Virus genome (UHGV): UHGV-0196443
Source of the DNA: a virus
Length of the DNA: 38,343 bases
Strand: one strand, 5' to 3'
Below, piece after piece: positions 16,621 to 33,335 of the stretch. The notes beneath the pieces are model-generated. The model made no database searches. It worked only from the letters and a program-made list of their open reading frames with translations, and had not been told where the DNA came from. The position numbers and the translations under genes were made by a program. Positions within the stretch are counted from its first letter, which is position 1; the number at the start of each line of letters is the position of its first letter.

Positions 16621-18066
16621 TTATGCCTCATTCTTTGTTACAGTCACCTGATATGTCTTGGTTGTCTTTCCATCTGTCACTTTTGCTTTTACTACATTTC
16701 CTGCGCCGGAAGCCCATGTAACTCTGCTGCCGTTTGCAATCGGTTTGTCATTGTATGTCAATTCCAGTTCTGCAGTGCTGTCTGCGATTACCGCCTGCAC
16801 CGTGTTTGATGCGTCTGTTGTTGTCAGGGTGTATGTCAATTCTCCTTCTGTAAATTCTGGTGTCAGCGTGTGTCCACCCACCTTAAAATCTGCAAGATTT
16901 GCATTTTCCACATTTTCTACACTTGGAACAACTTCCACTTCATAATGCGCTGGCTGTAGATCACTGATGTTCAAAAGCATGAAGGCATTATCATCTACTG
17001 CAAATCCATGACCATACATTTTGATCAGGTAAACCCTCTCATCTTCCAGGAATCTGTAATCATCTGAATACAAGATTCTTCCGTTATTTTCGATTCCAGC
17101 TCCCATGAGGTAAAGCTTTGCCATACCAAATACAGCCTTTCCGACTCCTACCGCCGGAGACTGGATCACATCGATTGGGAATGGCAGTGTACTTACATAT
17201 CCACCGCCCGGCGCCGGTCTCTGTGTTGCCGGCAGGACTTTACTGAAATAATCTGACGGATTTACCACCAGAATCAGTGTGTCTACGGTTCTTGCCTGTC
17301 CTTTTTCATTGATTGCCAGAACAGATGCCAATTTTCCAAGCTGCACATCATTAAACTTTGTAACCTTTACTGCTTTTTTATCTGGATATACTCCACCCTT
17401 GATCGTAACAGAGTCTCCCACCTGTTTTGTCATACCGATTGGCATGTCTTTTCCAGTTCCATTGATGATACCGTCTTCCAATCCATTTGCAAGCGCTTCA
17501 TACAGAACCTGTCTCACATAAGCATCCAACCATTCTGGCCCCAGATCCAACATTGCTTTACACACCGGAAGAAATGCGGACAGTTTACTCAGTGTCACAT
17601 CTACCTCTTTAAATCCGGATGTCAGCTCCTGGATGATCTCTGCGCAAAGTTTTCCCCATGCTGCTTTCTGATATCCATTCGTATTCATCATCATTCGTGT
17701 CAACCCTGTTACGGATGTAAACTGGATTTTGGACAACAGCGGATGATCTGTTTTCAAATCTTCGAATACTTTGTCAATTACGGTATATGGCATTACCACA
17801 TCCAGATTTTCTACTGCCTGTTTCGGATTCGGTGCTTTCATGGCTTCTGCCAGTTTCTGATAATATTCTTTTTCTTTGGATGTCAGCTGTCTTACGCCGC
17901 GCTCAGACAGAATTCTCTGATCTGCTTCTTCTACGATTCCCCGTGCCTGTTCTATGACACTTTCCTGAATCTTATCGCACAGCTCCACAAACGCTGCCTG
18001 GAACTGCTCTGCATCTCCGGCTGTGATTGCCTCATTCATCTTCTGTACGATTGCTGTTTTTTCCAT
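16621..18066 (-). CDS. Major capsid protein (HK97 fold) with N-terminal delta/scaffold-like domain and C-terminal Ig-like domain
   Basis: 481 aa following the prohead protease. Helical N-terminal roughly 100 aa. C-terminal T/V-rich beta domain (TYQVTVTKNEA) resembles a Big_2 decoration domain. Confidence 0.85.
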   Translation of the reverse strand: MEKTAIVQKMNEAITAGDAEQFQAAFVELCDKIQESVIEQARGIVEEADQRILSERGVRQLTSKEKEYYQKLAEAMKAPNPKQAVENLDVVMPYTVIDKVFEDLKTDHPLLSKIQFTSVTGLTRMMMNTNGYQKAAWGKLCAEIIQELTSGFKEVDVTLSKLSAFLPVCKAMLDLGPEWLDAYVRQVLYEALANGLEDGIINGTGKDMPIGMTKQVGDSVTIKGGVYPDKKAVKVTKFNDVQLGKLASVLAINEKGQARTVDTLILVVNPSDYFSKVLPATQRPAPGGGYVSTLPFPIDVIQSPAVGVGKAVFGMAKLYLMGAGIENNGRILYSDDYRFLEDERVYLIKMYGHGFAVDDNAFMLLNISDLQPAHYEVEVVPSVENVENANLADFKVGGHTLTPEFTEGELTYTLTTTDASNTVQAVIADSTAELELTYNDKPIANGSRVTWASGAGNVVKAKVTDGKTTKTYQVTVTKNEA

Positions 18067-18089: not shown

Positions 18090-18815
18090 TTAAATCATGC
18101 CTCCTCTAAAAAGATTTAATACATTGTTTTTTCTTGGTTTCTTGTCTTCCTGTGGTTTCTGCATTGCTGCAATCTGCTGCCGGAAGCTCTCCTGACTATT
18201 TAACTGTCTTTGCATATCGGACAGCTTCTCCAGAATCTCTTCTGTATTGACCGGTTCTGCTGTCTTTCCCATGATCTCATCAATGAGTCCATATTCCAGC
18301 GCCTTTTCCGGAGTGAGGTAAGTCTCATTTTCCATTAACTCAATCAACTCACTTTCCTCAATCTTCGCCCTTTCCAGAAAAACTTGCCGGTTTGCTTCCA
18401 TCATGTCATCCAGATCATCGGCATATTTTCTCAGTTGTGTTGCATTGCCCGAGCAATACATCCACATATTGTGTATCAGTGCCGTTGTACCTAAACACAT
18501 TTTTCTTGTGTCACACGCCTGTAGAATCAAAAACGCAACACTGTGTGCTACACCATCCACAATCCCGACTTTCTGGTTTTGTTTTTGCTTCAGTAAATTG
18601 TAAATAGCAACGCCCTCTTTTACGGATCCACCATTTGAGTTGATATGCAGCTCAATTGTCTGTCCTTCTGGAATTTCACTCAGTTTCTCTGCAAAATATT
18701 TCGCGGAAGTCTCCGAGTCCTTATATTCCCATGCGTTCCAGTCAAATTCTCCATATTCTGTCACATCATCATAAATGTACAGAAGTGTTTTGTTCTCTGC
18801 CTGAACAGGCTGCAT
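18090..18815 (-). CDS. Prohead protease, ClpP/S14 family
   Basis: 241 aa. INSNGGSV...GVAHSVAFLILQACD...MWMY matches the ClpP-like Ser/His region. Confidence 0.85.
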   Translation of the reverse strand: MQPVQAENKTLLYIYDDVTEYGEFDWNAWEYKDSETSAKYFAEKLSEIPEGQTIELHINSNGGSVKEGVAIYNLLKQKQNQKVGIVDGVAHSVAFLILQACDTRKMCLGTTALIHNMWMYCSGNATQLRKYADDLDDMMEANRQVFLERAKIEESELIELMENETYLTPEKALEYGLIDEIMGKTAEPVNTEEILEKLSDMQRQLNSQESFRQQIAAMQKPQEDKKPRKNNVLNLFRGGMI

Positions 18816-18856
18816 TCTCCAGTTTGTTATGTTTTTCCTTGTCTCACCTCTTTCCT

Positions 18857-18900
18857 GGTTTGATTTATAAAAAGAGCACCTACCATTTCTGATAGATGCT
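18857..18900 (-). terminator. Rho-independent terminator closing the moron, just upstream of the protease RBS
   Basis: Minus-sense AGAGCAUCUA-loop-UAGGUGCUCU (10 bp, one G.U) followed by UUUUUAUAAAU. Confidence 0.45.
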
Positions 18901-18920
18901 CTGATTACTGTATCTAATTT

Positions 18921-19163
18921 TTACAACATTTCCTGTATTTCCCTCAATTTATTTTGAGCCTTATAAGCCATATCCAGGATCATATTGGCTTTTACGCCTG
19001 CGTGTTTATAATACTCTCCATCAATCTTCCATATATCTTCTTTCCCATTTATGTCTTGTTCGAAATATTCCTGATCCAAATCATTGCTCAATACATAAAT
19101 TCTCTCAAGTATTATTTCTGCTTCACTTACAACATTACTAATTTTGATGTTTAATTCATTCAT
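18921..19163 (-). CDS. Hypothetical acidic protein (moron gene)
   Basis: 80 aa, AT-rich codon usage unlike the flanking head genes. ATGA overlap with the upstream gene. Confidence 0.45.
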   Translation of the reverse strand: MNELNIKISNVVSEAEIILERIYVLSNDLDQEYFEQDINGKEDIWKIDGEYYKHAGVKANMILDMAYKAQNKLREIQEML

Positions 19164-19393
19164 CTTATGCTCTCTCCTTCTGATTCTCTCAACATTTGCG
19201 CATACAAAAAGCCATTTCTAAATTCAAAATCTGATATAGCATTTATATATTCATCGAGAGCTCTTGAAAGATTACTTTCCGCTTTTCCTACTTCATCTGG
19301 GACCATCCAGTTAACATTCTCCATATAATCGCTACGAATCTGTTCAAGTTCCTGTTCTGTATATTTTTTCATCTCACAGCACCTCCGCGTCAA
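19160..19393 (-). CDS. Hypothetical protein (moron gene)
   Basis: 77 aa in the track. Likely start is the internal MKKYTEQ... (19372) with SD GGAGGTG 7 nt upstream. Confidence 0.45.
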   Translation of the reverse strand: MTRRCCEMKKYTEQELEQIRSDYMENVNWMVPDEVGKAESNLSRALDEYINAISDFEFRNGFLYAQMLRESEGESIR

Positions 19394-19949
19394 GAAACAT
19401 TCCTATTTGTTCATATTCTGGTCTTTTTGCAAAATTTGCAATCACTTTTATACCATATTGTTCGCAAATGAGTTTTGTATTTTCTGCAATTTCTTTCGGT
19501 GCCGACTGATTATTTTTCATGATTGTTGCAAGTGAATTGATCAATCGAGCAACTTCTCCCGGTTTATCTGTTATCGGTATTTGTGTTACCTGATGTTCCA
19601 TCTCATAAAAGCGTTTTACATATCTGGCAGTAAATAAAACGCCCTTTTCTCCAGTAGATTTATTTGCCAAAAAATCACAACCTAATTTTGTGACTTCATA
19701 ACACTTATTTTCTTTTCCGCTGATGTCTCGATATGTGGATGGAATAAAATAATCACTCACAGCCATTTGGCTCTCAGTCATAATCTGTATGTATCCCTTC
19801 CTATCTTTTCTTCCATCCAGTTTTCTCAAAATATCATTATGTGATATTTCCATCATATCTGCTACTTCCATTGTGGTAATTGTTGATTTCATTAAATCAT
19901 TCATAATAATAAAAACTCCTTTCAAATTCGTTCTTGAAAGAAGCTTCAT
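19374..19949 (-). CDS. Rha-family phage regulatory protein-like (putative antirepressor)
   Basis: TTMEVADMMEISHNDILRKLDGRKDRKGYIQIMTESQ...YEVTKLGCDFLANKSTGEKGVLFTARYVKRFYEMEH matches the Phage_pRha pattern. Likely start at 19905 (MNDLMKST, SD GAAAGGAG). Confidence 0.55.
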   Translation of the reverse strand: MKLLSRTNLKGVFIIMNDLMKSTITTMEVADMMEISHNDILRKLDGRKDRKGYIQIMTESQMAVSDYFIPSTYRDISGKENKCYEVTKLGCDFLANKSTGEKGVLFTARYVKRFYEMEHQVTQIPITDKPGEVARLINSLATIMKNNQSAPKEIAENTKLICEQYGIKVIANFAKRPEYEQIGMFLDAEVL

Positions 19950-19961
19950 TCTGCATTATAA
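19933..19961 (+). promoter_or_regulatory. Consensus sigma70-type promoter on the plus strand (TTGAAA-17-TATAAT)
   Basis: ttgaaa (19933-19938), 17-nt spacer, tataat (19956-19961). Opposite orientation to all surrounding genes. Confidence 0.45.
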
Positions 19962-19967
19962 TATTTA

Positions 19968-20035
19968 CAGAAGGAAACTTCTTTGTGTGAACAACCGTTG
20001 ATACTGTGGTAGGTGCGACGGTTGTTTTATTTTTT
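19968..20035 (+). ncRNA. Candidate cis-antisense small RNA (about 68 nt) opposite the Rha-like gene leader
   Basis: Runs from the promoter above to an intrinsic terminator: AACAACCGT (19990-19998) / ACGGTTGTT (20018-20026), 9-bp stem, then TTATTTTTTG. No plus-strand ORF. Confidence 0.35.
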
Positions 20036-20212
20036 GTCCAATTCAGCTTGTACTAAATCAATTCCATGATTTATAACATCCGTCTTGCTTACCTCCATTT
20101 TGTCTGCGCAATATTGAAGCTTTTCAGCTTCCTGTGGTGTCAGACGTATTTCAAGACGCTCTGTCTTTTTATTCGCTGTTGGACGTCCTGTTCTTGGGGA
20201 CATTATCTTCAC
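20027..20212 (-). CDS. Ribbon-helix-helix (CopG/Arc-like) DNA-binding protein
   Basis: 61 aa. ...RLEIRLTPQEAEKLQYCADKMEVSKTDVINHGIDLV fits the RHH beta-alpha-alpha pattern. SD GAGGTGA. Confidence 0.6.
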   Translation of the reverse strand: MKIMSPRTGRPTANKKTERLEIRLTPQEAEKLQYCADKMEVSKTDVINHGIDLVQAELDKK

Positions 20213-20221
20213 CTCACTTTC

Positions 20222-20247
20222 GCCCGTACATAAGTTATAACATATGT
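20222..20247. promoter_or_regulatory. 26-bp near-perfect palindrome overlapping the RHH promoter (candidate autoregulatory operator)
   Basis: CGTACATA-AGTTATAACA-TATGTACG, with 8-bp perfect arms and an inner GTTATAAC palindrome. It overlaps the -10 (TATAAC) of a TTTACT-17-TATAAC minus-strand promoter, about 25 bp upstream of the RHH ATG. Confidence 0.45.
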
Positions 20248-20299
20248 ACGTACAAAAGTAAAGAGGTTTTTAAAATTTTTCCACCCTACCTTATGGAAT

Positions 20300-20345
20300 T
20301 AAAATAAGACACAGCATTTCGCCATGTCTTTCGGTGCTTTCCGGG
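20300..20345 (-). terminator. Terminator-like hairpin after the portal gene
   Basis: Minus-sense AAGACAUGG...CUGUGUCUU stem followed by AUUUUAAUU, directly after the portal stop. Confidence 0.35.
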
Positions 20346-20385
20346 GAGATCAGGAACATACCCTGAAAGGACTCCTCCCCTATTT

Positions 20386-21561
20386 TCAATTTTCTTCATT
20401 TTTCACACGCTCCCCTGCCAAATCAGAAAGCAGGTCTTGAATCTTACTATAATTTTTCGTCATAAAGTGCTGGTTTGCCCAGTCTTCTTCAATTCTCGGT
20501 TTTCCGAGCACTTCCAAAATATCATTGATCGTGAATGCTCCGCTTGAGATCAGCTTGTCTACTGGAGTTGCAATATCAAAAATATCAATATGCTTGACTG
20601 CCAGAGTCTCTATCTTCACATAATTTCCTGCTTTAAATCCTTTGTATCCATTTCTCTTTCGGTTGATCTCCTGCTGCAGCATCTTAATGAGCGGATCTAT
20701 CACAAAGGTCAGAAGTTCATCAATCGCTTTCCCTGTATCCTGTACATCTCCTTTGGCCAGACTCGGCGGGAAAGAAAATGCTCTTGCTGTAAATTCAAAG
20801 ATGTCATCAGCTAGAGACTTGATATCTCGTGTTGACTCTGTAGAATACGTCTTTCCGCTTTCTGAAATATCCTGATATTCGTATCCGTCAAATAATGGCA
20901 ACACCGCACTGTCGCTTTCAAAGAAGTTCTTAAAATGCGTGCTCATCAACTCCTGGAATGTTTCATCGAAATTCTCACTTTCCTGTGCAATTGCTCCAAT
21001 ATTCAGGATTCCTTTTTTTCCTCTTGATTTTTTATAGGCATCCTGCGCATATATCAGTAATTTTGAATACGTTTCATACATCCCATTTGTGAGATTCCTC
21101 ATATTCTCTGAATTTAATTCAAAAAACATGACTTCCGACATTTCCCGTGTTTCAGGCAATTCGTAACCGTCAAATGTGATCCCGCTGAATCTGTACTCCT
21201 TCAATGCCAGTACCTCTTTGCTGTAACTGTCTGCCACATAAATGTGATTGTTTACTTCTACCACAAGGCATTCATTGTTCCGGTACAGCTTGCCAATCAG
21301 CTTATTCATGAATGATGTTGCATTCTGATTCTGATTTGGTTCGTAATTCCAAAGATAATACTCCTGTCCTTTTACCTCTTTCTTCTTGATATACGTTTTA
21401 AATTCACATTTGCTGATGGCATTTGCAATTTTATTGACACAAGTCCAGAAAGCCAGCTCTCTCAGATACACTTCGTACATAGCACTCTGCACATCTTTAT
21501 CTTTCATAATGTCATCCACTGTAATCCTTGTGGTACTGCTGCCTCCAAGTTTTTTGATCAA
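20386..21561 (-). CDS. Portal protein (HK97-family-like)
   Basis: 391 aa between TerL and the head genes. Size and composition are typical. Confidence 0.8.
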   Translation of the reverse strand: MIKKLGGSSTTRITVDDIMKDKDVQSAMYEVYLRELAFWTCVNKIANAISKCEFKTYIKKKEVKGQEYYLWNYEPNQNQNATSFMNKLIGKLYRNNECLVVEVNNHIYVADSYSKEVLALKEYRFSGITFDGYELPETREMSEVMFFELNSENMRNLTNGMYETYSKLLIYAQDAYKKSRGKKGILNIGAIAQESENFDETFQELMSTHFKNFFESDSAVLPLFDGYEYQDISESGKTYSTESTRDIKSLADDIFEFTARAFSFPPSLAKGDVQDTGKAIDELLTFVIDPLIKMLQQEINRKRNGYKGFKAGNYVKIETLAVKHIDIFDIATPVDKLISSGAFTINDILEVLGKPRIEEDWANQHFMTKNYSKIQDLLSDLAGERVKNEEN

Positions 21562-21597: not shown

Positions 21598-23310
21598 TTA
21601 ATAATTATAAACCTGTATTTTCGGTGTTGGTTTTGCCCGTTTCTGCGGCAGCACGTTTTCCACAGTCATCGCCGCTACAAATGCCATAAATGGGTCTGTT
21701 TTTCTGCTTTTTCCTTCTATTTTTCCATATACATAATTTCCCATATCGGCATCATCCTCTTTTCCTGGTTTTCTTCCATGCCTGATTAGTTTTGCATTAT
21801 TGGTGGCCCACCTTAATTCTGGAGCATCTCCCCACCGTAACCATTTATTTACAAAGCAGCTATCAATCAGAGGTGCCACTTTCATAATGTCTGATGGCCG
21901 GATCAGCTTCAGATTCTTATTTACTTTCATATCAAAACCTATTTCCTGCAGATATTTCCCGATCAATGCGAAACGAAAATCATCCAAGGCCAAAGCTTTG
22001 ATATTGTAGGTGCGTTTTGCTTCCTGTATATAATTTGTAAGCAATGACGGATGTATTTCCACGTCATCTACAAGCGTCAATCTTCCGGAATCCGCCCACT
22101 CTTTCCATGGAGCCTTTATCCTCGGAATGTCTTTCGAATTTAGGCACATCCATGAATGGCTGATGTCAAACCGTTCATCTCCATCTCGGAAATGAAGATC
22201 TACGGAAGCCCAATCTGTTAATTTTGTATAATCAATTCCACAAACACAGCTCCATCTTTCCAGATCCGGCAGTAAGATATTGGTCGCTTTGATATTATCC
22301 CACTCCGTCACACTCATTTCTTCTGCATTTTCTGGAATATTCATTCGCTTTGTCATGAATGCCGGAAGTCTTCTCGGATTTTTCTTCCATTCCCGGTATT
22401 CTTTTCTGATCTCTTCCATAAGACTTGGCAGGTATGGTAACGATGGATTTGCCATCGGCCAGTTTTCTTCCTGATCCACATCTTCCTTTTTATTCAGTTT
22501 ACAGATAAATGGTAACAACCCATTATCCGGTTCGCCACCCCGTAATATCTGTTCGGATGTTTCCAGTAGATCATCCAGCGGTCCTTCCCGCACGTCACCA
22601 TTTGTCGTGTAATAAGAACGCCTTGGATGTTTCTTCTTACCAAGTCCTGTTGTAAAGACGTTTATATTCTTATAGTCTTCATATTGATGGATCTCATTAA
22701 AAATACATATTCCGGAACGAAGACCGTCTTTTCCTTTCGGACTGTTTGTTCTTCCCTTCATAATAGACTTTGTTTTTAAGCATAAAACCTGTTCCTTCGT
22801 CCATCGGAAGAATTTCTTTAATTTCTTTATCACAGATGGGCGCTCAAATGCATTGATCACATCATGAACCGGCCGCATTGCCTGGTCCTCATTATTGGCA
22901 CAGATATCTACATCGTACTCTCTGATTCCATTATGCGGGGACATTAAACACACTGATTCGAGCGCAATTGTACCATCTTTTCCCGCTCCTCTCCCCAACA
23001 TACAGAATAAATCCGGCCATCTTGGAAGCCCGGATTCTCTCCAATATGTGCAATCGTGAAGTCCGATCACAAACTTCTGCCAGGGAAATATTTCTACAAA
23101 CGGGAAGTATTTTGACATCCCGATATATTTCTCCAACTGATCACAATCTATATAAATATCTTCATGCTCAAAACACCATTTTACATGCGCAACAAGCAGC
23201 TCCTGCTCTTCGCATACTGCATAGATTTTTTTCTCAACTATATCAATCCATTCCTGAATATATGGATGTATGTTACAGCTCATCTTCATCATCTCCCGAA
23301 TCATCGCCAA
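21598..23310 (-). CDS. Terminase large subunit
   Basis: 570 aa. N-terminal ATPase with Walker A-like GRGAGKDG. C-terminal nuclease-like region with acidic residues. Overlaps TerS. Confidence 0.9.
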   Translation of the reverse strand: MAMIREMMKMSCNIHPYIQEWIDIVEKKIYAVCEEQELLVAHVKWCFEHEDIYIDCDQLEKYIGMSKYFPFVEIFPWQKFVIGLHDCTYWRESGLPRWPDLFCMLGRGAGKDGTIALESVCLMSPHNGIREYDVDICANNEDQAMRPVHDVINAFERPSVIKKLKKFFRWTKEQVLCLKTKSIMKGRTNSPKGKDGLRSGICIFNEIHQYEDYKNINVFTTGLGKKKHPRRSYYTTNGDVREGPLDDLLETSEQILRGGEPDNGLLPFICKLNKKEDVDQEENWPMANPSLPYLPSLMEEIRKEYREWKKNPRRLPAFMTKRMNIPENAEEMSVTEWDNIKATNILLPDLERWSCVCGIDYTKLTDWASVDLHFRDGDERFDISHSWMCLNSKDIPRIKAPWKEWADSGRLTLVDDVEIHPSLLTNYIQEAKRTYNIKALALDDFRFALIGKYLQEIGFDMKVNKNLKLIRPSDIMKVAPLIDSCFVNKWLRWGDAPELRWATNNAKLIRHGRKPGKEDDADMGNYVYGKIEGKSRKTDPFMAFVAAMTVENVLPQKRAKPTPKIQVYNY

Positions 23311-23662
23311 CCGGCTTAATTCCTAGGCTGTCCAGTATTTTAAGCATTTGAGCATTGACCTTAATCCTCTGATCTATCGAGTCATTTTTCTTTTGCCCTT
23401 TTTGACCTCCTCCATTATTATATTCAACGATAGCGCCTCTCTTTTTAATGTCTGCGATCAGTTCGTTCTCCAGGTCCCAGAAGTCCATATATTTATCGAC
23501 CAAGTCGATGTAATATTTCCCTGTGGTTCCATTCCGGGCCAGCTGATCAAGAAGGTCCTCTTTAATTTCCACTCGCAATAATTCTTTTCTTGTTTTTCTC
23601 GCCCTTATACCACCCCCTCCGTCACGCGCGCACGAGAAATTTCTTTTGTCGGGAGCACCCAC
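23273..23662 (-). CDS. Terminase small subunit (P27/Terminase_4-like)
   Basis: 129 aa. The C-terminal NAQMLKILDSLGIKP pattern is typical of P27-family TerS. The track start is GTG, and the true start is uncertain. Confidence 0.6.
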   Translation of the reverse strand: MGAPDKRNFSCARDGGGGIRARKTRKELLRVEIKEDLLDQLARNGTTGKYYIDLVDKYMDFWDLENELIADIKKRGAIVEYNNGGGQKGQKKNDSIDQRIKVNAQMLKILDSLGIKPVGDDSGDDEDEL

Positions 23663-23730: not shown

Positions 23731-24069
23731 TTACCATTTTTCCTCTGTCAGCGGTTCTTTTTTCTTTTGCTTTCGATATCCATGAACCTCTTCATGACAA
23801 TCATGACACAGACTGATCAGGTTTCTCCGTTTCTCACCTCTGAAGCTGTACCAGATTTCCAATGCTTTATCTGGATGCTTCTTTACATAATTCACATGAT
23901 GAACCGTCGTTGCCTTTGTATACTTTCCACGTTTCTTACATAACTGACATTCATATTTATCAAGCTTTAACACCTGTTCTCTCAATGCTTTCCACTTGCC
24001 CCATGTATAGAATCTGTGGATATTTTCTCTTATGCATTTCTTTACAAATGCAATCTCATGTTCTGTCAT
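23731..24069 (-). CDS. HNH endonuclease (terminase-associated)
   Basis: 112 aa. CQLC...HHVNY...N...CHDCHEEVH is a zinc-finger HNH motif. Sits immediately upstream of TerS, the arrangement typical of cos phages. Confidence 0.85.
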   Translation of the reverse strand: MTEHEIAFVKKCIRENIHRFYTWGKWKALREQVLKLDKYECQLCKKRGKYTKATTVHHVNYVKKHPDKALEIWYSFRGEKRRNLISLCHDCHEEVHGYRKQKKKEPLTEEKW

Positions 24070-25134: not shown

Positions 25135-25665
25135 TTATCTTATCTTTATTTTGTATGATTCATTATCAATATTCTTATATTCATTCTGAGACTTAGAGCT
25201 CCAAAATTTAGAAAAATTGAAGTCGCATGCTTCCAACCTTCCCCTTAAATTATTTATTCGCAAAACATCTCTTTTAAAGTCTCTATTTGATTTGCTTCTA
25301 GTTAATTGTTGTATTTCTTTTATAGAACAACTACGAACCAATTCATCTTCTAAGTTCAGAACTTGCGTAACACACACTACTTCTTTTACTATACTCTGTT
25401 TCTTAAGAAAATCAATATTCTCTTTAAGTATATCCACTTTTCCAGTATCAGTATCAAAAACCAAAATAACCGTTGTTCTATATTTTAACATTCTAAGATG
25501 ACTTTTGCTTAATTTATTTTGAATAACATTAAACTTTTGCACTTTCCCTGGCACTATAGAGCGAAAGTCTGACTTTAATGTACTTATCACCTTCTTGTCA
25601 TCTTCTCCTTCAACAAAATAATGATAGTATTCTCCCTCTTTCATTTTCTTCCTCTTTTGTTTCAC
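25135..25665 (-). CDS. Small TOPRIM-like protein (RloB/DUF4276/AbiLii-class partner of an ABC ATPase)
   Basis: 176 aa in the track. Likely start is the internal MKEGEYYHYFVEGEDD (25644) with SD AAGAGGAAG. YHYFVEGEDD and VILVFDTDTG resemble TOPRIM Glu and DxD motifs. Lies 25 nt downstream of the ATPase stop and is very AT-rich. Confidence 0.5.
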   Translation of the reverse strand: MKQKRKKMKEGEYYHYFVEGEDDKKVISTLKSDFRSIVPGKVQKFNVIQNKLSKSHLRMLKYRTTVILVFDTDTGKVDILKENIDFLKKQSIVKEVVCVTQVLNLEDELVRSCSIKEIQQLTRSKSNRDFKRDVLRINNLRGRLEACDFNFSKFWSSKSQNEYKNIDNESYKIKIR

Positions 25666-25669
25666 ATAG

Positions 25670-26833
25670 TTATATTTGCGCTATTTCATATATCAATTCC
25701 AATTCTGGTGCAGTTGAAAACAGATCATTATCAACTGCACTTCTCAAAGAATCGGTATTCCTTTTCAAGTATTCTGAAGCATCTATACATTTAATAGGTT
25801 CCTCGGAATTATATGTATCTTTTTTTAAAAATGTATACGTATGTTTTGGTAATGGTAAATCCAATATATCTGTATTATGTGTAGTAAAAAACAATTGTTC
25901 ATCGTCTTTCAAACTATCTATCATAACACTTAAAAAAGCTTTTTCTATATCACTATGTGTATATGAAAATTTCTCATCACAATAATAAAATCCACATTCC
26001 CCAGCCAACATAGAGGATAACATGTCCGCAATATCTATACCCGCCTTGGTTCCACTAGACAAAATGCTTTCTTTTATAACTTCTCCATCCTGAATAATCA
26101 AATCTTGTGAATCCGTGCGAATAACATACGTATTTTTTACTTTATTTATTTTTTCGACGCTTTTAATTGCTGGATCTAATGCTCTCAGTGTATGATCTAA
26201 TACAAGTGGATATTTAGAATTTTCCGAACAATTTACCACTCCCCCTATTAAATCTGATGGATAACAAAACATCCATCCCAGATGCTCTATTTTCTCTAAT
26301 TCTTTTACGAAATCATCATCCAAATTTTGTTCCATCATTTCAATTTTTTTCACGCAAGACTCATAACTATCATTTTTATTGATATTTACATGCCTTGTAG
26401 ACACTTTCAACTGATGCTTACTTTCCTCATCATCCTCTTGAGGCAATATCCTAGCATCTAACCTATATAGTCTATTGCTCCTAACAACAAAATCCATTGA
26501 AAAAGACGCTTCTCTGTTTTTATCACATATTTTTTCTACAAGTTTAGTTGATTCTTTTCTCTCTATGAAATTAAAAATTCCCATGAGCATCTTTCCAACT
26601 GAAGTTTTTCCTGTAGCATTAGCCCCCATCAAAACATTCACTTTTTTATAGCGAAAATTTTGTCTATCTTTCAGAAATTCACCATCAATAGAAGAGTCAA
26701 CCAATTTCTTTGGATACGACATATTCATGTGAAATTTTTTAAATGCAAAGAAATTGTCAATTTCTAAATTCATTATGATCATAACTTTATCCTTTCGTGA
26801 ATATTTTTTCGGATTCTGCGAAGTAATCTTCAT
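25670..26833 (-). CDS. ABC-type (AAA_15/AAA_21, OLD/AriA/AbiLi-like) ATPase
   Basis: 387 aa. N-terminal MNLEIDNFFAFKKF, Walker A GANATGKTS, signature-like LSSGTK, Walker B FYYCDE, H-loop FFTTHNTDIL. Alternative start MIIMNLEID at 26782 with SD AAAGGA. Confidence 0.8.
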   Translation of the reverse strand: MKITSQNPKKYSRKDKVMIIMNLEIDNFFAFKKFHMNMSYPKKLVDSSIDGEFLKDRQNFRYKKVNVLMGANATGKTSVGKMLMGIFNFIERKESTKLVEKICDKNREASFSMDFVVRSNRLYRLDARILPQEDDEESKHQLKVSTRHVNINKNDSYESCVKKIEMMEQNLDDDFVKELEKIEHLGWMFCYPSDLIGGVVNCSENSKYPLVLDHTLRALDPAIKSVEKINKVKNTYVIRTDSQDLIIQDGEVIKESILSSGTKAGIDIADMLSSMLAGECGFYYCDEKFSYTHSDIEKAFLSVMIDSLKDDEQLFFTTHNTDILDLPLPKHTYTFLKKDTYNSEEPIKCIDASEYLKRNTDSLRSAVDNDLFSTAPELELIYEIAQI

Positions 26834-26837
26834 TTTT

Positions 26838-26866
26838 ATTATACACCTAATTTCCTTTTTTTCAAT
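26838..26866 (-). promoter_or_regulatory. Promoter for the ATPase/TOPRIM cassette (TTGAAA-16/17-TATAAT)
   Basis: Minus-sense ttgaaa-aaaaggaaattaggtg-tataat, immediately upstream of the 26833 ATG. Confidence 0.4.
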
Positions 26867-27081
26867 TACTTTTTTTACATTTTATCATAAAAATTTAGAA
26901 ATAAATGTCATAATAATGATTATACAATTAATATTTTTCGACATTTGATGAAAATTTTAAGCGCCCTGCACTTTCATGCAAGACGCCTTCTGTAATTTGT
27001 GTGGTTTTTACTGGTTGTCTTTAGGAGGAAAGCTAAAGATACCTCAGCCGTCCAGCTTATTCCTTTCGGCTTTATACCATA

Positions 27082-31241: not shown

Positions 31242-33335
31242 CTATCCAGCTTTCCTTTCTGTACGTTTCAACTTCTTTCTTTTGAATAGCTCAACAAATT
31301 CTTTGACTTCCTCTGTCATGTCTCCGTTATATTTTGCCCGACACTGGATCATAACCCCATTGTTTACCTCCATGGTGTAAAACGGTGTCTCCGGATCCTG
31401 CTTCTTTCGCAGAAACAGGATCGTTGTCTCACCTTTGGCCACCCGGTCAATGTATGTGGCAACACAATGATGCATAGCATTTCCCTCTTGCCTGATTTCA
31501 TGGATCCGTTTCGGAAGTCTCAACACAAATTGTTCCGTTTCCATTTCCAGATAGCTGTCCCGTTTTCTGTATTTCTCGTACTTTTTGTCTTTTTTATTGT
31601 CCAAATCCTCTTTGGCTTTTATTTCCCGTTCTCCGCTCTCTTCAATCAACTCTTCATGACGCTGTTCTAAATTCTTCGGAAATAAGATCCACGACTCTCT
31701 CATGTTGTATCCCAGTTCCTCTGCCATCTTCAGATAATCGTGATAGTCCACGGCTTGTCTTTTATCTTCTCCTAACACTTCTTTGATGTACCGTTCCATC
31801 TTGTAAATGGTGGTATACCGGATATACCTGGTGAAATTCCTTGTAAACTTTGCAAAAAACTGAACCTGCTGCCATGTTGGATGTAATCCCTTCTCCTGCA
31901 TTTCATAAGTGGTGTTATATTCCCTTACACTTGGATTCTTTCCAGCCAGCAGCTGGTAATGTTCCCCGCTGAGCCCTAATATCTTTTTGCAGGACCGTTC
32001 TTTCTTCTTTAAGTATCCTGTGTTGTACCCCCGCATTTCTTCTTTGACAATTCTGTAAAACCCGCACTTTACCAACTGTTCGATTCCAGGCATACGCCGG
32101 TATCCATCTATATATTGATCCAAATACATTTTTTCCCGATATTTCCCATGTTTCACAAAACATTCCATTGCAGAATACTGAAACGGCGTTCCCTGTAAGA
32201 TTTGTTTGAGATTCCGGTTATAAAGGATCGCTTCATGCTCTGCTACTTTTGCATAATATCTCCACCTGTCTCTGTAAAACCACCGGATCCAGTCTGTCTG
32301 CTTATACTGTTCATACTCAAATTCATGAATCTTTTTTAAATTCCGGTCATACGTGATCCGTATCAGCTCCCAGTGCCCGCCGTTTTCCTTTTGTCCATTC
32401 CTGAATTTCCGATAGCACTCAAAATATCGGTATACATATCCCTCTTTTGTTTTCTGCAGGAGTCCTGCATATCCTCTTGCGTGAACATTTCCGCCTTTCT
32501 TTCGGCTTCGGTAGGTAATGGGATGCCTGCAGTATGGACATTCGCCCGCGGCTCCATAGTGTGGATTCCTGATTTTTACTTCTCTTCCACAATGTGTGCA
32601 ATACCCTTTTGTTACCTTTCTTCCGGCATCATAAAACAAATACTGGGGAAGGACTTCCCGGTCTACAAACTCATCAAAATCTTTGGGCAGTTCCGGCACC
32701 AGTGCCATCTCAGAATCAATTTTGTCAATCTCTTTTCGATCTTTGCTATAGCTTTGCCATCTTGCGATTGCTGCACGTGGCTCTCCCTTCCCGTTGTGAC
32801 AAAATTCTGAAATCAGTTTTCGTGCCGCTTCTTTTATCCATACTTTTCTGTCACTGTACCAGTACCCTTGTTGTGCTTCTCCCCATCCTCCCATGTAGCT
32901 TAAGTTATCTATTTTTGCAGTTCTCCACTTCTCACACAAATTGTCATAGGTGTAGTACTTGTTTTCTTCCAAAAGGAATACCCGGTATTTCGGATACGTT
33001 ATATCATCCTGAATCATATCTCTTGTAAATATGGCAATCTCCAGAACAGTTCCTGTCCTCTTTGCTCGATAAAACCAATAATATGTTGCACTCCACACAG
33101 GTACTTTTCCACATCTTAGTACCTGATTCCCTTGATCTTCCCTGACTGTCTTTCGCATCGTTTCCGTTACTTTTAACTCCGGAAGCTTTAATAACTCTCC
33201 TCGTCTCATTTCTCCGCCTCCAGATAGTATTCTTCTGCCATGGCAAATACTTCCAGATCCGGCATTGCCACCATTTGTGCCCCTCTTCTTTCTTTCACTC
33301 TTTTTTCCGCTTCTTTTCGGATATTCTGAAGACAT
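31242..33335 (-). CDS. PcfJ-like protein
   Basis: 697 aa with many W/Y/R residues. C-terminal NAMHHCVATYIDRVAKGETTILFLR is typical of PcfJ-like proteins. Confidence 0.55.
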   Translation of the reverse strand: MSSEYPKRSGKKSERKKRGTNGGNAGSGSICHGRRILSGGGEMRRGELLKLPELKVTETMRKTVREDQGNQVLRCGKVPVWSATYYWFYRAKRTGTVLEIAIFTRDMIQDDITYPKYRVFLLEENKYYTYDNLCEKWRTAKIDNLSYMGGWGEAQQGYWYSDRKVWIKEAARKLISEFCHNGKGEPRAAIARWQSYSKDRKEIDKIDSEMALVPELPKDFDEFVDREVLPQYLFYDAGRKVTKGYCTHCGREVKIRNPHYGAAGECPYCRHPITYRSRKKGGNVHARGYAGLLQKTKEGYVYRYFECYRKFRNGQKENGGHWELIRITYDRNLKKIHEFEYEQYKQTDWIRWFYRDRWRYYAKVAEHEAILYNRNLKQILQGTPFQYSAMECFVKHGKYREKMYLDQYIDGYRRMPGIEQLVKCGFYRIVKEEMRGYNTGYLKKKERSCKKILGLSGEHYQLLAGKNPSVREYNTTYEMQEKGLHPTWQQVQFFAKFTRNFTRYIRYTTIYKMERYIKEVLGEDKRQAVDYHDYLKMAEELGYNMRESWILFPKNLEQRHEELIEESGEREIKAKEDLDNKKDKKYEKYRKRDSYLEMETEQFVLRLPKRIHEIRQEGNAMHHCVATYIDRVAKGETTILFLRKKQDPETPFYTMEVNNGVMIQCRAKYNGDMTEEVKEFVELFKRKKLKRTERKAG

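Follow-up and report, generated by a model that had tools for sequence, protein, structure and literature searches.

The DNA analysed here (the window: UHGV virus genome UHGV-0196443, 38,343 nucleotides) belongs to a temperate siphophage of gut Firmicutes, and all of its phage genes lie on the minus strand. Between the portal gene (20386-21561, minus strand; stop codon 20386-20388) and the gene for a ClpP-type prohead protease (18090-18815, minus strand) there are four extra open reading frames (ORFs), which, with their predicted regulatory elements, form the cassette that is the subject of this report. The original prediction, made from the letters of the window, had placed at 18857-20350 a moron inserted between portal and protease. 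It listed a terminator-like hairpin on either side, an operator-controlled promoter with a 26-bp near-perfect palindrome over its -10 box, an autoregulator-type ribbon-helix-helix (RHH; CopG-like) gene, an oppositely oriented small RNA (sRNA) unit, a Rha-family gene, two translationally coupled, small acidic ORFs and a closing intrinsic terminator before the protease. All of these parts were recovered in the present analysis. The insertion is where it was said to be, and its true bounds, 18855-20427, are slightly wider and include the 3' codons of the portal gene. In the direction of transcription, the parts are as follows.

18855..20427, minus: whole inserted cassette at the portal/protease junction, 1573 bp, from alignment with empty-site relatives
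20386..20427, minus: cassette-borne replacement of the 3' end of the portal gene (last 13 codons and stop)
20343..20380, minus: left-flank hairpin 1, GGGGAG..CTCCCC (predicted fold)
20300..20330, minus: left-flank terminator-like hairpin (stem 20306-20330) and U-run (terminator scan and fold)
20234..20262, minus: sense promoter TTTACT-17-TATAAC, 9/12
20216..20259, no strand: predicted palindromic operator centred on the -10 box, 26-bp core (20225-20250), 44 bp when extended
20027..20203, minus: RHH repressor gene, 58 amino acids
19969..20035, plus: predicted cis-antisense sRNA of ~67 nt (5' end inferred from the -10 box; 3' end taken as the hairpin and T-run)
19934..20032, minus: mRNA leader element, hairpin H1 and hairpin A:B (covariance model R1)
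19968..19984, minus: leader arm A, inside the stretch to which the sRNA is complementary
19934..19953, minus: arm B, in the spacer and -35 box of the antisense promoter, outside the sRNA
19934..19962, plus: antisense promoter TTGAAA-17-TATAAT, 11/12
19912..19925, minus: arm C, the Shine-Dalgarno region of the Rha gene (UUUGAAAGGAGUUUU), predicted to pair with arm B if arm A is not free
19374..19904, minus: Rha-family protein (Rha176), 176 amino acids, an N-terminal Rha domain and a C-terminal domain of ~65 amino acids
19160..19372, minus: orf3, acidic two-helix protein of 70 amino acids, isoelectric point (pI) 4.4
18921..19163, minus: orf4, acidic helical hairpin of 80 amino acids, pI 4.5, last gene of the cassette
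18863..18902, minus: right-flank intrinsic terminator (scan and fold)

A scan of IMG/VR with the portal as query yielded 73 loci, and the junction was compared among those whose portal, protease and capsid were 98-100% identical to the window's. The sequence that the window has in common with its empty-site relatives stops at 20428 and restarts at 18854. In these near-identical phages, the junction is either empty or holds the window's cassette or one of at least four others:

59 bp: empty (19 loci)
814 bp: one NlpC/P60- or endolysin-like protein (6 loci)
1573 bp: the cassette of the window (2 contigs)
1876 bp: a Bro-N protein, an RHH protein and an ORF6N protein (6 loci)
2010 bp: a Rha protein, an RHH protein and an ORF6N protein (1 locus)
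larger: Rha217, an 82-amino-acid regulator, Rha176, orf3 and a different 60-amino-acid ORF (1 locus, L077; L076-type cassette)

Judged by these alignments, 18855-20427 is a genuine insertion, an optional cassette that near-identical phages exchange for others. The left breakpoint falls inside the portal gene. In empty-site loci, the match to the portal stops at residue 381 and the sequence of the 3' end is different; in cassette-bearing loci, the cassette brings the new last 13 codons, and the portal C-terminus reads ..QDLLSDLAGERVKNEEN. This hot spot, for which at least six states are documented in a single phage lineage, should be useful for annotation and for studies of cassette movement.

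Other occupants of the junction were seen as well. The 814-bp cassette (L010, 7174-7851; also L014, L015, L017, L018 and L040) encodes a 225-residue protein with an NlpC/P60- or endolysin-like domain; its flanks differ, and it has neither RHH gene nor sRNA. In L037 (7369-13170), whose portal is 81% identical, the portal gene is followed by an RHH gene, an sRNA and an AntA-type protein; replication/recombination-type genes come next, in place of the protease and capsid, which reflects an odd gene order or a chimeric contig. The portal match of L073 (2783-3932; 39% identical) is cut short, and the portal-protease gap there is 562 bp vs. ~72 bp; this junction may hold another insertion.

The cassette is bounded on both sides by terminator-like hairpins. 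Two of them follow the portal gene (20343-20380 and 20306-20330). The stem of the second is succeeded by AUUUUAAUU and folds with a z score of -3.3; in the cassette variants L003 and L076, its pairing is kept through different sequence. On the right, a 13-bp hairpin (18873-18902) with a U-run (z = -5.6) ends ~50 nt ahead of the protease start. This left flank of two hairpins and the right terminator are common to three cassette types at the portal/protease site. They also occur in L076, an unrelated phage in which a related cassette is placed between the tail chaperone genes and the tape-measure gene: identity to the window is 83% over the left hairpins, 92% over the promoter region, 98% over the leader, Rha gene and orf3, and 98% over the right terminator. 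The flanking hairpins thus travel with the cassette to other sites, in head and tail operons. Among the tail/baseplate genes of Fusobacterium phage Funu2, there is a promoter/operator region 82% identical to that of the window, with an RHH gene and a Rha gene; in Clostridium phage phiCT453B (L256, record positions 32642-33295), a Rha gene with 73.5% DNA identity to that of the window lies between the tail fibre/XkdX genes and the holin gene. The earlier premise that Rha-type genes live in the early region is contradicted by these two phages, which have them at moron sites in their late regions; a Rha gene at such a site is therefore not unusual.

The sharp drop in GC content described at the outset is real, but modest. 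The cassette has 35.3% GC vs. 41.0% for the window (the standard deviation of same-size windows is 3.4%); values this low occur in 6.3% of such windows, and one other region falls below it. At third codon positions, the cassette genes have 27-33% GC, vs. 40-44% for their neighbours.

Transcription of the four genes would start at TTTACT-17-TATAAC. This sense promoter matches at 9/12 positions and lacks the final T, and it was therefore not listed by the promoter scan. Among the relatives of the RHH gene, however, 169 of 176 have a promoter of at least 9/12 at the homologous position, at a fixed 28-31 nt from the ATG. The -10 box is covered by the palindrome, whose 26-bp core (CGTACATATGTTATAACTTATGTACG) is self-complementary at 24/26 positions and is the sole such 26-mer in the window; the 44-bp extension (20216-20259) is an imperfect palindrome. 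Close RHH relatives have long ACTTTNGCCCGTACA..TGTACGGGCNAAAGT palindromes in the same place, likewise centred on the -10 box. The RHH protein matches phrog_876 ("transcriptional repressor", E = 2.7e-13). The family profile matches CopG and other RHH chains in the PDB, the matches to the CopG structures 1b01 and 2cpg being weak (E = 0.078-0.095), and family members match Pfam RHH_1, RHH_3 and NikA-like entries. PDB sequence searches with the single RHH sequence or the single Rha sequence gave nothing useful. Together, promoter, palindrome and gene are consistent with a cassette that has its own operator-controlled promoter and an autoregulator-type RHH gene.

Residues 1-8 of the RHH protein (window 20180-20203) form a motif, MSPxxGRP, with an AT-hook-like GRP; it precedes the RHH beta-strand and is nearly invariant in 90 diverse relatives. 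It may serve as a minor-groove arm for the AT-rich centre of the operator. In L076 (4597-4915), a leader/sRNA and payload with 98% identity to the window's stand behind another small regulator, an 82-amino-acid ORF (possibly an Arc-like RHH protein of ~48 amino acids). The operator there also differs (ACGCGTAAC repeats), behind a promoter-upstream region that is 92% identical to the window's. This front end looks like a swap of specificity.

The spacer between the RHH and Rha genes is 122 nt long (20026-19905) and holds the antisense unit. TTGAAA-17-TATAAT, on the plus strand, is the best promoter in the 4 kb scanned. A hairpin (19989-20026; z = -3.45) lies ~30 nt past it, followed by a T-run (TTTTATTTTTT) to ~20035, and the predicted sRNA runs back to the RHH stop codon. 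To assess conservation, we collected RHH relatives (more than 523 in IMG/VR; 173 confirmed among genome candidates; 160 loci fetched) and inspected 172 distinct regions downstream of the RHH gene, with the mirrored strand and shuffled sequences as controls. An antisense hairpin and T-run abut the RHH stop in 163/172 regions, vs. 7 on the mirrored strand and 25 in shuffles. When an antisense promoter of at least 9/12 located 85-115 nt upstream of the T-run was demanded as well, 133/172 regions qualified; the controls gave 1 and 0, respectively. The combination of RHH gene and antisense unit occurs in at least 160 distinct loci, in phages of Clostridia (Oscillospiraceae, Lachnospiraceae, Ruminococcus), Streptococcus and Fusobacterium. 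In L076 and Funu2, terminators and promoters that are not homologous stand at equivalent places of the unit. A YUUGGUMGG-like motif, containing YUNR, recurs in the terminator loop, and UGGUGU recurs in the linker. Rfam returned no match at E <= 1 for the window region, nor at E <= 0.5 for seven relatives, and showed no relation of the leader/sRNA to the sar RNA of phage P22. The sRNA unit is the most conserved and informative part of the cassette, not an incidental extra.

Some loci carry arrays of RHH genes with leader/sRNA units in tandem (L211, 3102-4631; also L201, L226, L186, L187 and L179). L211 has five model matches ~355 bp apart, and the "payload" of one unit is the next unit; a cascade and a stack of multiple specificities are both possibilities. 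A survey of neighbouring genes gave mixed contexts, in which head genes recur and integrases, primases and host genes occur too. We do not claim that the module always sits in late operons.

How might the antisense RNA act? The mRNA leader has three arms, of which A and B stand on either side of the antisense -10 box. The complement of arm B is the first ~17 nt of the stretch transcribed into the sRNA (arm A in the mRNA); of the three arms, A alone lies inside the antisense RNA. Because arm B is upstream of the antisense start, the sRNA cannot form an A:B hairpin; the sense mRNA can, the alternative being a palindrome in the DNA. Over 133 loci, the inverted repeat that surrounds the antisense -10 box has a mean folding energy of -18.0 kcal/mol, vs. 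-6.2 kcal/mol for shuffles, and the A:B hairpin is found in all of them, while the arm sequences differ completely from locus to locus. When arm A is taken out of the fold, as binding of the sRNA would do, the Shine-Dalgarno region of the next ORF (arm C) becomes the partner of arm B, with the antisense -35 hexamer in the loop; of 45 loci inspected, nearly all show this. The window's B:C fold has an energy of -15.6 kcal/mol. The terminator scan picked up this hairpin (19947-19912), with the U-run at its end, as terminator-like; attenuation is thus possible beside a translational block.

Two analyses addressed whether the arms change together. Alignment of 63 leaders with MAFFT and RNAalifold produced no consensus pairs, because the stem registers differ between sequences, and an ungapped alignment anchored on the -10 box gave a weak signal at the four innermost pairs only. 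In place of the latter, we compared cognate and non-cognate duplexes over 18 sequence classes. Cognate A:B duplexes averaged -19.4 kcal/mol and non-cognate ones -8.1 kcal/mol (p = 4e-11); for B:C, the respective means were -9.8 and -6.5 kcal/mol (p = 2e-5). The cognate partner ranked in the top 5 for 14/18 classes. Arm A often contains a Shine-Dalgarno-like motif, and arm B often its complement. The second analysis used the covariance model R1 (H1 and A:B), which was built from projected single-sequence folds. R1 has a single match in the window (57.6 bits, E = 2.5e-9) and 105 matches in 100 RHH loci, each of them directly 3' of an RHH stop and co-oriented with the RHH gene; a further 970 kb, from other phage loci, gave only 15, all in cassette-bearing loci. 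Its alignment has 66.5% of cells paired, vs. 48.4% after shuffling, and a covariation score of 0.416 vs. 0.159; none of 500 shuffles reached either value. Slid partners were 36-41% paired, and 27 of 30 pairs had changes on both sides. From sequence comparison, then, the three leader arms covary: A, B and C, the last being the real ribosome site.

Behind this front end, the window encodes Rha176, orf3 and orf4. Rha176 matches PF09669 with 71.3 bits (cut-off 29.9; E = 1e-19), which is above the Pfam gathering threshold; against the curated NCBIfam model TIGR02681, it falls below the cut-off (24.2 vs. 45.95 bits). Its family is large and well conserved, with more than 1270 related clusters, some of which are named "Rha family transcriptional regulator". 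The next two genes are coupled by TGAgATG and ATGA junctions. The orf3 gene strictly co-occurs with Rha176, and relatives of orf4 are the last genes of cassettes ahead of tape-measure genes in other phages. Homologue searches found 11 clusters for orf3 and 10 for orf4, with no names and no Pfam families.

For a broader view of the payloads, we surveyed 71 non-redundant ORFs directly behind an RHH/sRNA unit. The Pfam families among them were Bro-N (6), ORF6N (6), Rha (4), AntA (4), ORF6C (3) and ANT (1). About 48 of the 71 are small proteins (45-135 amino acids) without a Pfam family (ORFs of L091-L255). A C-terminal motif, [FYLIM]xxG[FYM]xx[GA]xxx[AL], is present in 14 of 61 payloads vs. 0 in shuffles, and orf3 has a similar stretch, FRNGFLYA. 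A hidden Markov model of orf3 matched one small payload protein in a set of 85 (E = 9e-4); this match is too weak to claim the two as one family.

We think it reasonably probable that the cassette is a horizontally exchanged moron at a hot spot, organised like P22 immI, with an RHH repressor, an antisense switch and a payload made in pulses. Upon entry, or when repression is lost, the sense promoter would fire, and RHH, Rha, orf3 and orf4 would be transcribed as one message up to the right terminator. An RHH multimer would then bind the palindrome and shut its own promoter. Meanwhile, the antisense RNA would pair with hairpin H1 and arm A of the mRNA; arm B, thereby released, would sequester the ribosome-binding site of the Rha gene. 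In addition, transcription may end at the B:C hairpin with its U's, and the RNA duplex may undergo cleavage. With the RHH repression and the antisense closing of the ribosome-binding site combined, the payload would be made only in a short pulse. Rha, as a DNA-binding-type payload, might target a CI-type repressor, as its antirepressor or regulator; the repressor could belong to the phage itself or to another prophage in the same host. This step is the weaker part of the model. In the lysogen, the terminators on either side would shield the cassette from the late operon, with the corollary that late transcription is able to pass through them. We infer that both promoters are active, that RHH represses itself, that the switch works in the direction given, that the payload comes in a pulse, that the terminators insulate and that Rha is an antirepressor.

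Several points weigh against this model. The sRNA and both of its ends are predicted, as is the activity of the two promoters, and the sense promoter of the window is weak (9/12, with TATAAC as its -10 box). Terminators within a late operon would be problematic if late transcription is not terminator-resistant. Further, we know of no established biochemical function for Rha-family proteins. No repressor partner was identified; the window has two XRE-type helix-turn-helix (HTH) genes and no clear CI, and the repressor gene is probably located past its right end. Roughly two thirds of the surveyed payloads are small and of unknown function, such that "antirepressor" may not be their general role. 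Regarding the leader, a clear ribosome-site-like motif is present in only about half of the classes (arm B, 10/18; arm A, 14/18), and the R1 alignment was fitted to the structure, with only 66.5% of its cells pairing. Moreover, on the antisense strand the A:B repeat folds with almost equal stability (-17.4 kcal/mol, against -18.0 kcal/mol; p = 0.048), and energy alone therefore cannot separate an RNA hairpin from a DNA palindrome. Lastly, Mnt, the second and divergently transcribed (maintenance) repressor of P22, has no counterpart here: no plus-strand ORF with RHH features was found in 18855-20427.

The original prediction had suggested a toxin-antitoxin-like or anti-defence identity for the island; neither was supported by PADLOC, NCBIfam or toxin-domain searches. 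In a toxin-antitoxin or addiction-like module, the RHH protein would be an autorepressor of the antitoxin type, the antisense RNA would serve as another antidote (type I/III-like), and the Rha or small-ORF payload would be toxic once out of control; the module would stabilise the prophage or abort superinfection. The RHH profile does match RHH antitoxins (DUF1778/TacA, KacA and MazE7; in Pfam, TacA1, BrnA and HicB-like), double negative control by a repressor and an antisense RNA is typical of dangerous genes, and the RHH modules are mobile and patchily distributed. Makarova et al. 2009 list repressor-antirepressor pairs as toxin-antitoxin-like and note toxicity for some Ant-domain proteins (PMC2701414). 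Nevertheless, we regard this reading as unlikely. Pfam, NCBIfam and PADLOC assigned no toxin family to Rha, orf3 or orf4: Pfam and NCBIfam gave Rha only for the cassette proteins, and the sole PADLOC match, orf3 to LeoA (E = 0.0078), is negligible, with nothing significant otherwise. Those payload families that have a Pfam match are DNA-binding regulator or antirepressor types. The RHH gene comes first in its operon and has a long palindromic operator, as do Arc and CopG, and RHH units also occur in tandem arrays without payloads. No contact between the RHH and payload proteins was found, and none was looked for.

If the cassette were instead an anti-defence or superinfection-exclusion island, its payload would be the two small acidic helical proteins, for example as DNA mimics or inhibitors of a host defence system, and Rha would only regulate the island. 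Indeed, both proteins are small and acidic, and AlphaFold models them with confidence as simple two-helix hairpins (predicted local distance difference test scores of 84 for orf3 and 82 for orf4). They belong to narrow orphan families, and the relatives of orf4 are always the last genes of late-operon cassettes. The cassette is also AT-rich and sits at a hot spot with alternative accessory cargo that includes the NlpC/P60-like protein. However, the structure predictions yielded no informative fold match: a search of viral structures (BFVD) gave nothing below E = 0.1, the best values being 0.11 for orf4 and 1.3 for orf3, both to uncharacterised proteins, and no similarity to a known anti-defence protein or fold emerged. 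Other cassettes with this front end lack orf3 and orf4 and have antirepressor-type genes instead, and the strict co-occurrence of orf3 with Rha176 suggests that orf3 is a partner. An anti-defence role is, in our judgement, improbable.

A further alternative concerns the switch: the inverted repeat around the antisense -10 box might be a DNA operator bound by a protein, with the antisense transcript acting by transcriptional interference or plain duplex formation only. The repeat is centred on the -10 box, its stability is nearly equal on the two strands, and palindromes over -10 boxes are classic operators, the RHH operator of this very cassette being one example. By contrast, the arms are 12-17 nt long and wholly different between loci whose RHH proteins are 50-70% identical, and they do not track the payload family; arm B is specifically complementary to its own downstream Shine-Dalgarno region, beyond generic motif pairing; and G-U pairs are frequent among the pairs counted. 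We thus hold the operator explanation to be quite doubtful. Finally, the notion that the four genes are conserved, late-expressed morphogenesis factors, for which their co-orientation with the head genes inside the head operon and a weak match of orf4 to the PHROG "internal head protein" (E = 0.0018) might speak, is rejected as next to impossible, since the segment is entirely missing from 19 loci whose portal, protease and capsid are 98-100% identical, others hold unrelated cargo there, and cassette genes also occur in tail operons of other phages; as originally proposed, the cassette is not a morphogenesis component.

Taken beyond the window, the model of a repressor- and antisense-controlled payload leads to a broader proposal, which we advance tentatively and with a little less than even confidence: an RHH gene with a convergent antisense RNA of ~65-75 nt is an unannotated front end, widespread in Gram-positive temperate phages. 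It would work as a three-arm translation switch that delivers antirepressor-type and small unknown payloads in pulses, and would amount to a modular second immunity system (a functional analogue of immI) for cross-talk or warfare between prophages; the cassettes that carry it, with their portable terminator flanks, would hop between hot spots in head and tail operons, and its operators and arm sequences would diversify into separate specificities. What is new here is the RHH/antisense-RNA front end as a widespread, conserved module without an Rfam match. If true, it adds a large RNA family, from human and animal gut phages, that is absent from Rfam, together with a testable mechanism, i.e. antisense-triggered refolding that closes a ribosome-binding site. 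It would also mean that phages of Firmicutes repeat the logic of arc-sar-ant in P22 and of copG-RNAII in streptococcal plasmids. Further, it would give a handle on the most tightly controlled phage effectors: beside candidate antirepressors, these comprise about 50 families of small proteins of unknown function, and they likely govern prophage induction and interference between prophages in gut communities.

The rest of the window fits a phage of this type. A serine recombinase is encoded at its left end and early genes with XRE-type HTH proteins at its right end; an amidase endolysin and a tape-measure gene are also present. The genes on either side of the portal and protease are, in order:

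23731-24069, minus: HNH
23273-23662, minus: small terminase
21598-23310, minus: large terminase
16621-18066, minus: major capsid protein

A second AT-rich island (25135-26950), between the early genes and the HNH/terminase genes, has the lowest GC content in the window (29.5%). It encodes an AAA_15/AAA_21-type ATPase (25670-26833, 387 amino acids) followed by a 176-amino-acid ORF (25135-25665) without a Pfam family. These two may be a defence pair.

The cassette invites comparison with several known systems. Morons of lambdoid and HK97-like phages, as defined by Juhala, Hendrix and colleagues, are extra DNA between genes that are adjacent in relatives, with their own promoter and terminator and a differing base composition. 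Here, portal and protease are 59 bp apart in 19 close relatives and 1573 bp apart in the window, a promoter/operator (20216-20262) and a terminator (18863-18902) are predicted within the cassette, and the base composition differs modestly. In contrast to those morons, the cassette has multiple genes and an elaborate internal regulatory circuit, and its conserved flanking hairpins move along with it between sites in head and tail operons. As for the payload, Rha176 is a clear PF09669 member of the Rha/Bro-N/ORF6N/AntA group (PF09669, PF02498, PF10543, PF08346), and its C-terminal ~65 residues occur on a Bro-N protein too (L082), an instance of the domain shuffling typical of this antirepressor-type group.

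Because the sRNA unit and the RHH gene form a portable regulatory front end for antirepressor-type payloads, P22 immI or pMV158 copG-RNAII is a better analogy than a toxin-antitoxin or anti-defence system. In P22-like phages, the "ant moron" comprises mnt, arc, sar and ant inside the late operon, with ten types in sixteen genomes (PMC2629481), and the sar antisense RNA blocks translation of the downstream gene (PMC7968456). That region and the cassette of the window are both independently regulated morons of late operons whose content is highly variable between otherwise syntenic phages (PMC2629481), and the order of parts is alike: an operator-controlled promoter, a small RHH repressor (Arc in P22), a convergent antisense RNA (sar, ~68 nt) and an antirepressor-type gene. 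In the window, the RHH gene is first, with a palindromic operator over its own promoter, and the antisense RNA gene between repressor and payload is predicted from an 11/12 promoter and a terminator. The differences are considerable as well. The host phylum and the phage type are not those of P22, the present phage being an HK97-like siphophage of Firmicutes with the cassette at its portal/protease site. The predicted RNA is unrelated to sar by sequence or Rfam, and its 5' end (near 19969) and the Shine-Dalgarno sequence (19912-19918) have the antisense -35 box between them, leaving the ribosome-binding site uncovered; since the RNA covers arm A instead, inhibition would be indirect. The payload is of the Rha type rather than Ant, with putative antirepressor activity, and two extra small ORFs follow it.

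The second analogy comes from Gram-positive bacteria. In plasmid pMV158, CopG and the antisense RNAII control translation of repB (PMC4485353): a promoter/operator precedes a small RHH repressor that is co-transcribed with the controlled gene, and a short antisense RNA (a hairpin with a U-tail) from the intergenic region inhibits translation downstream (PMC4485353). The window has the same layout, with an RHH gene that would be co-transcribed with the target and a predicted intergenic antisense RNA. Its target, however, is a Rha-family regulator-type phage protein in a late operon, not a replication initiator, and the similarity of its RHH family to CopG is marginal (E about 0.08-0.1). RNAII has 48 nt and one hairpin and acts via its 5' tail, whereas the RNA of the window, with ~67 nt, would act via a three-arm switch. 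In pT181 and pIP501 (copR-RNAIII-repR), which we group with pMV158, antisense RNA induces refolding of the leader (PMC5415839), and the cassette would share this principle with them.

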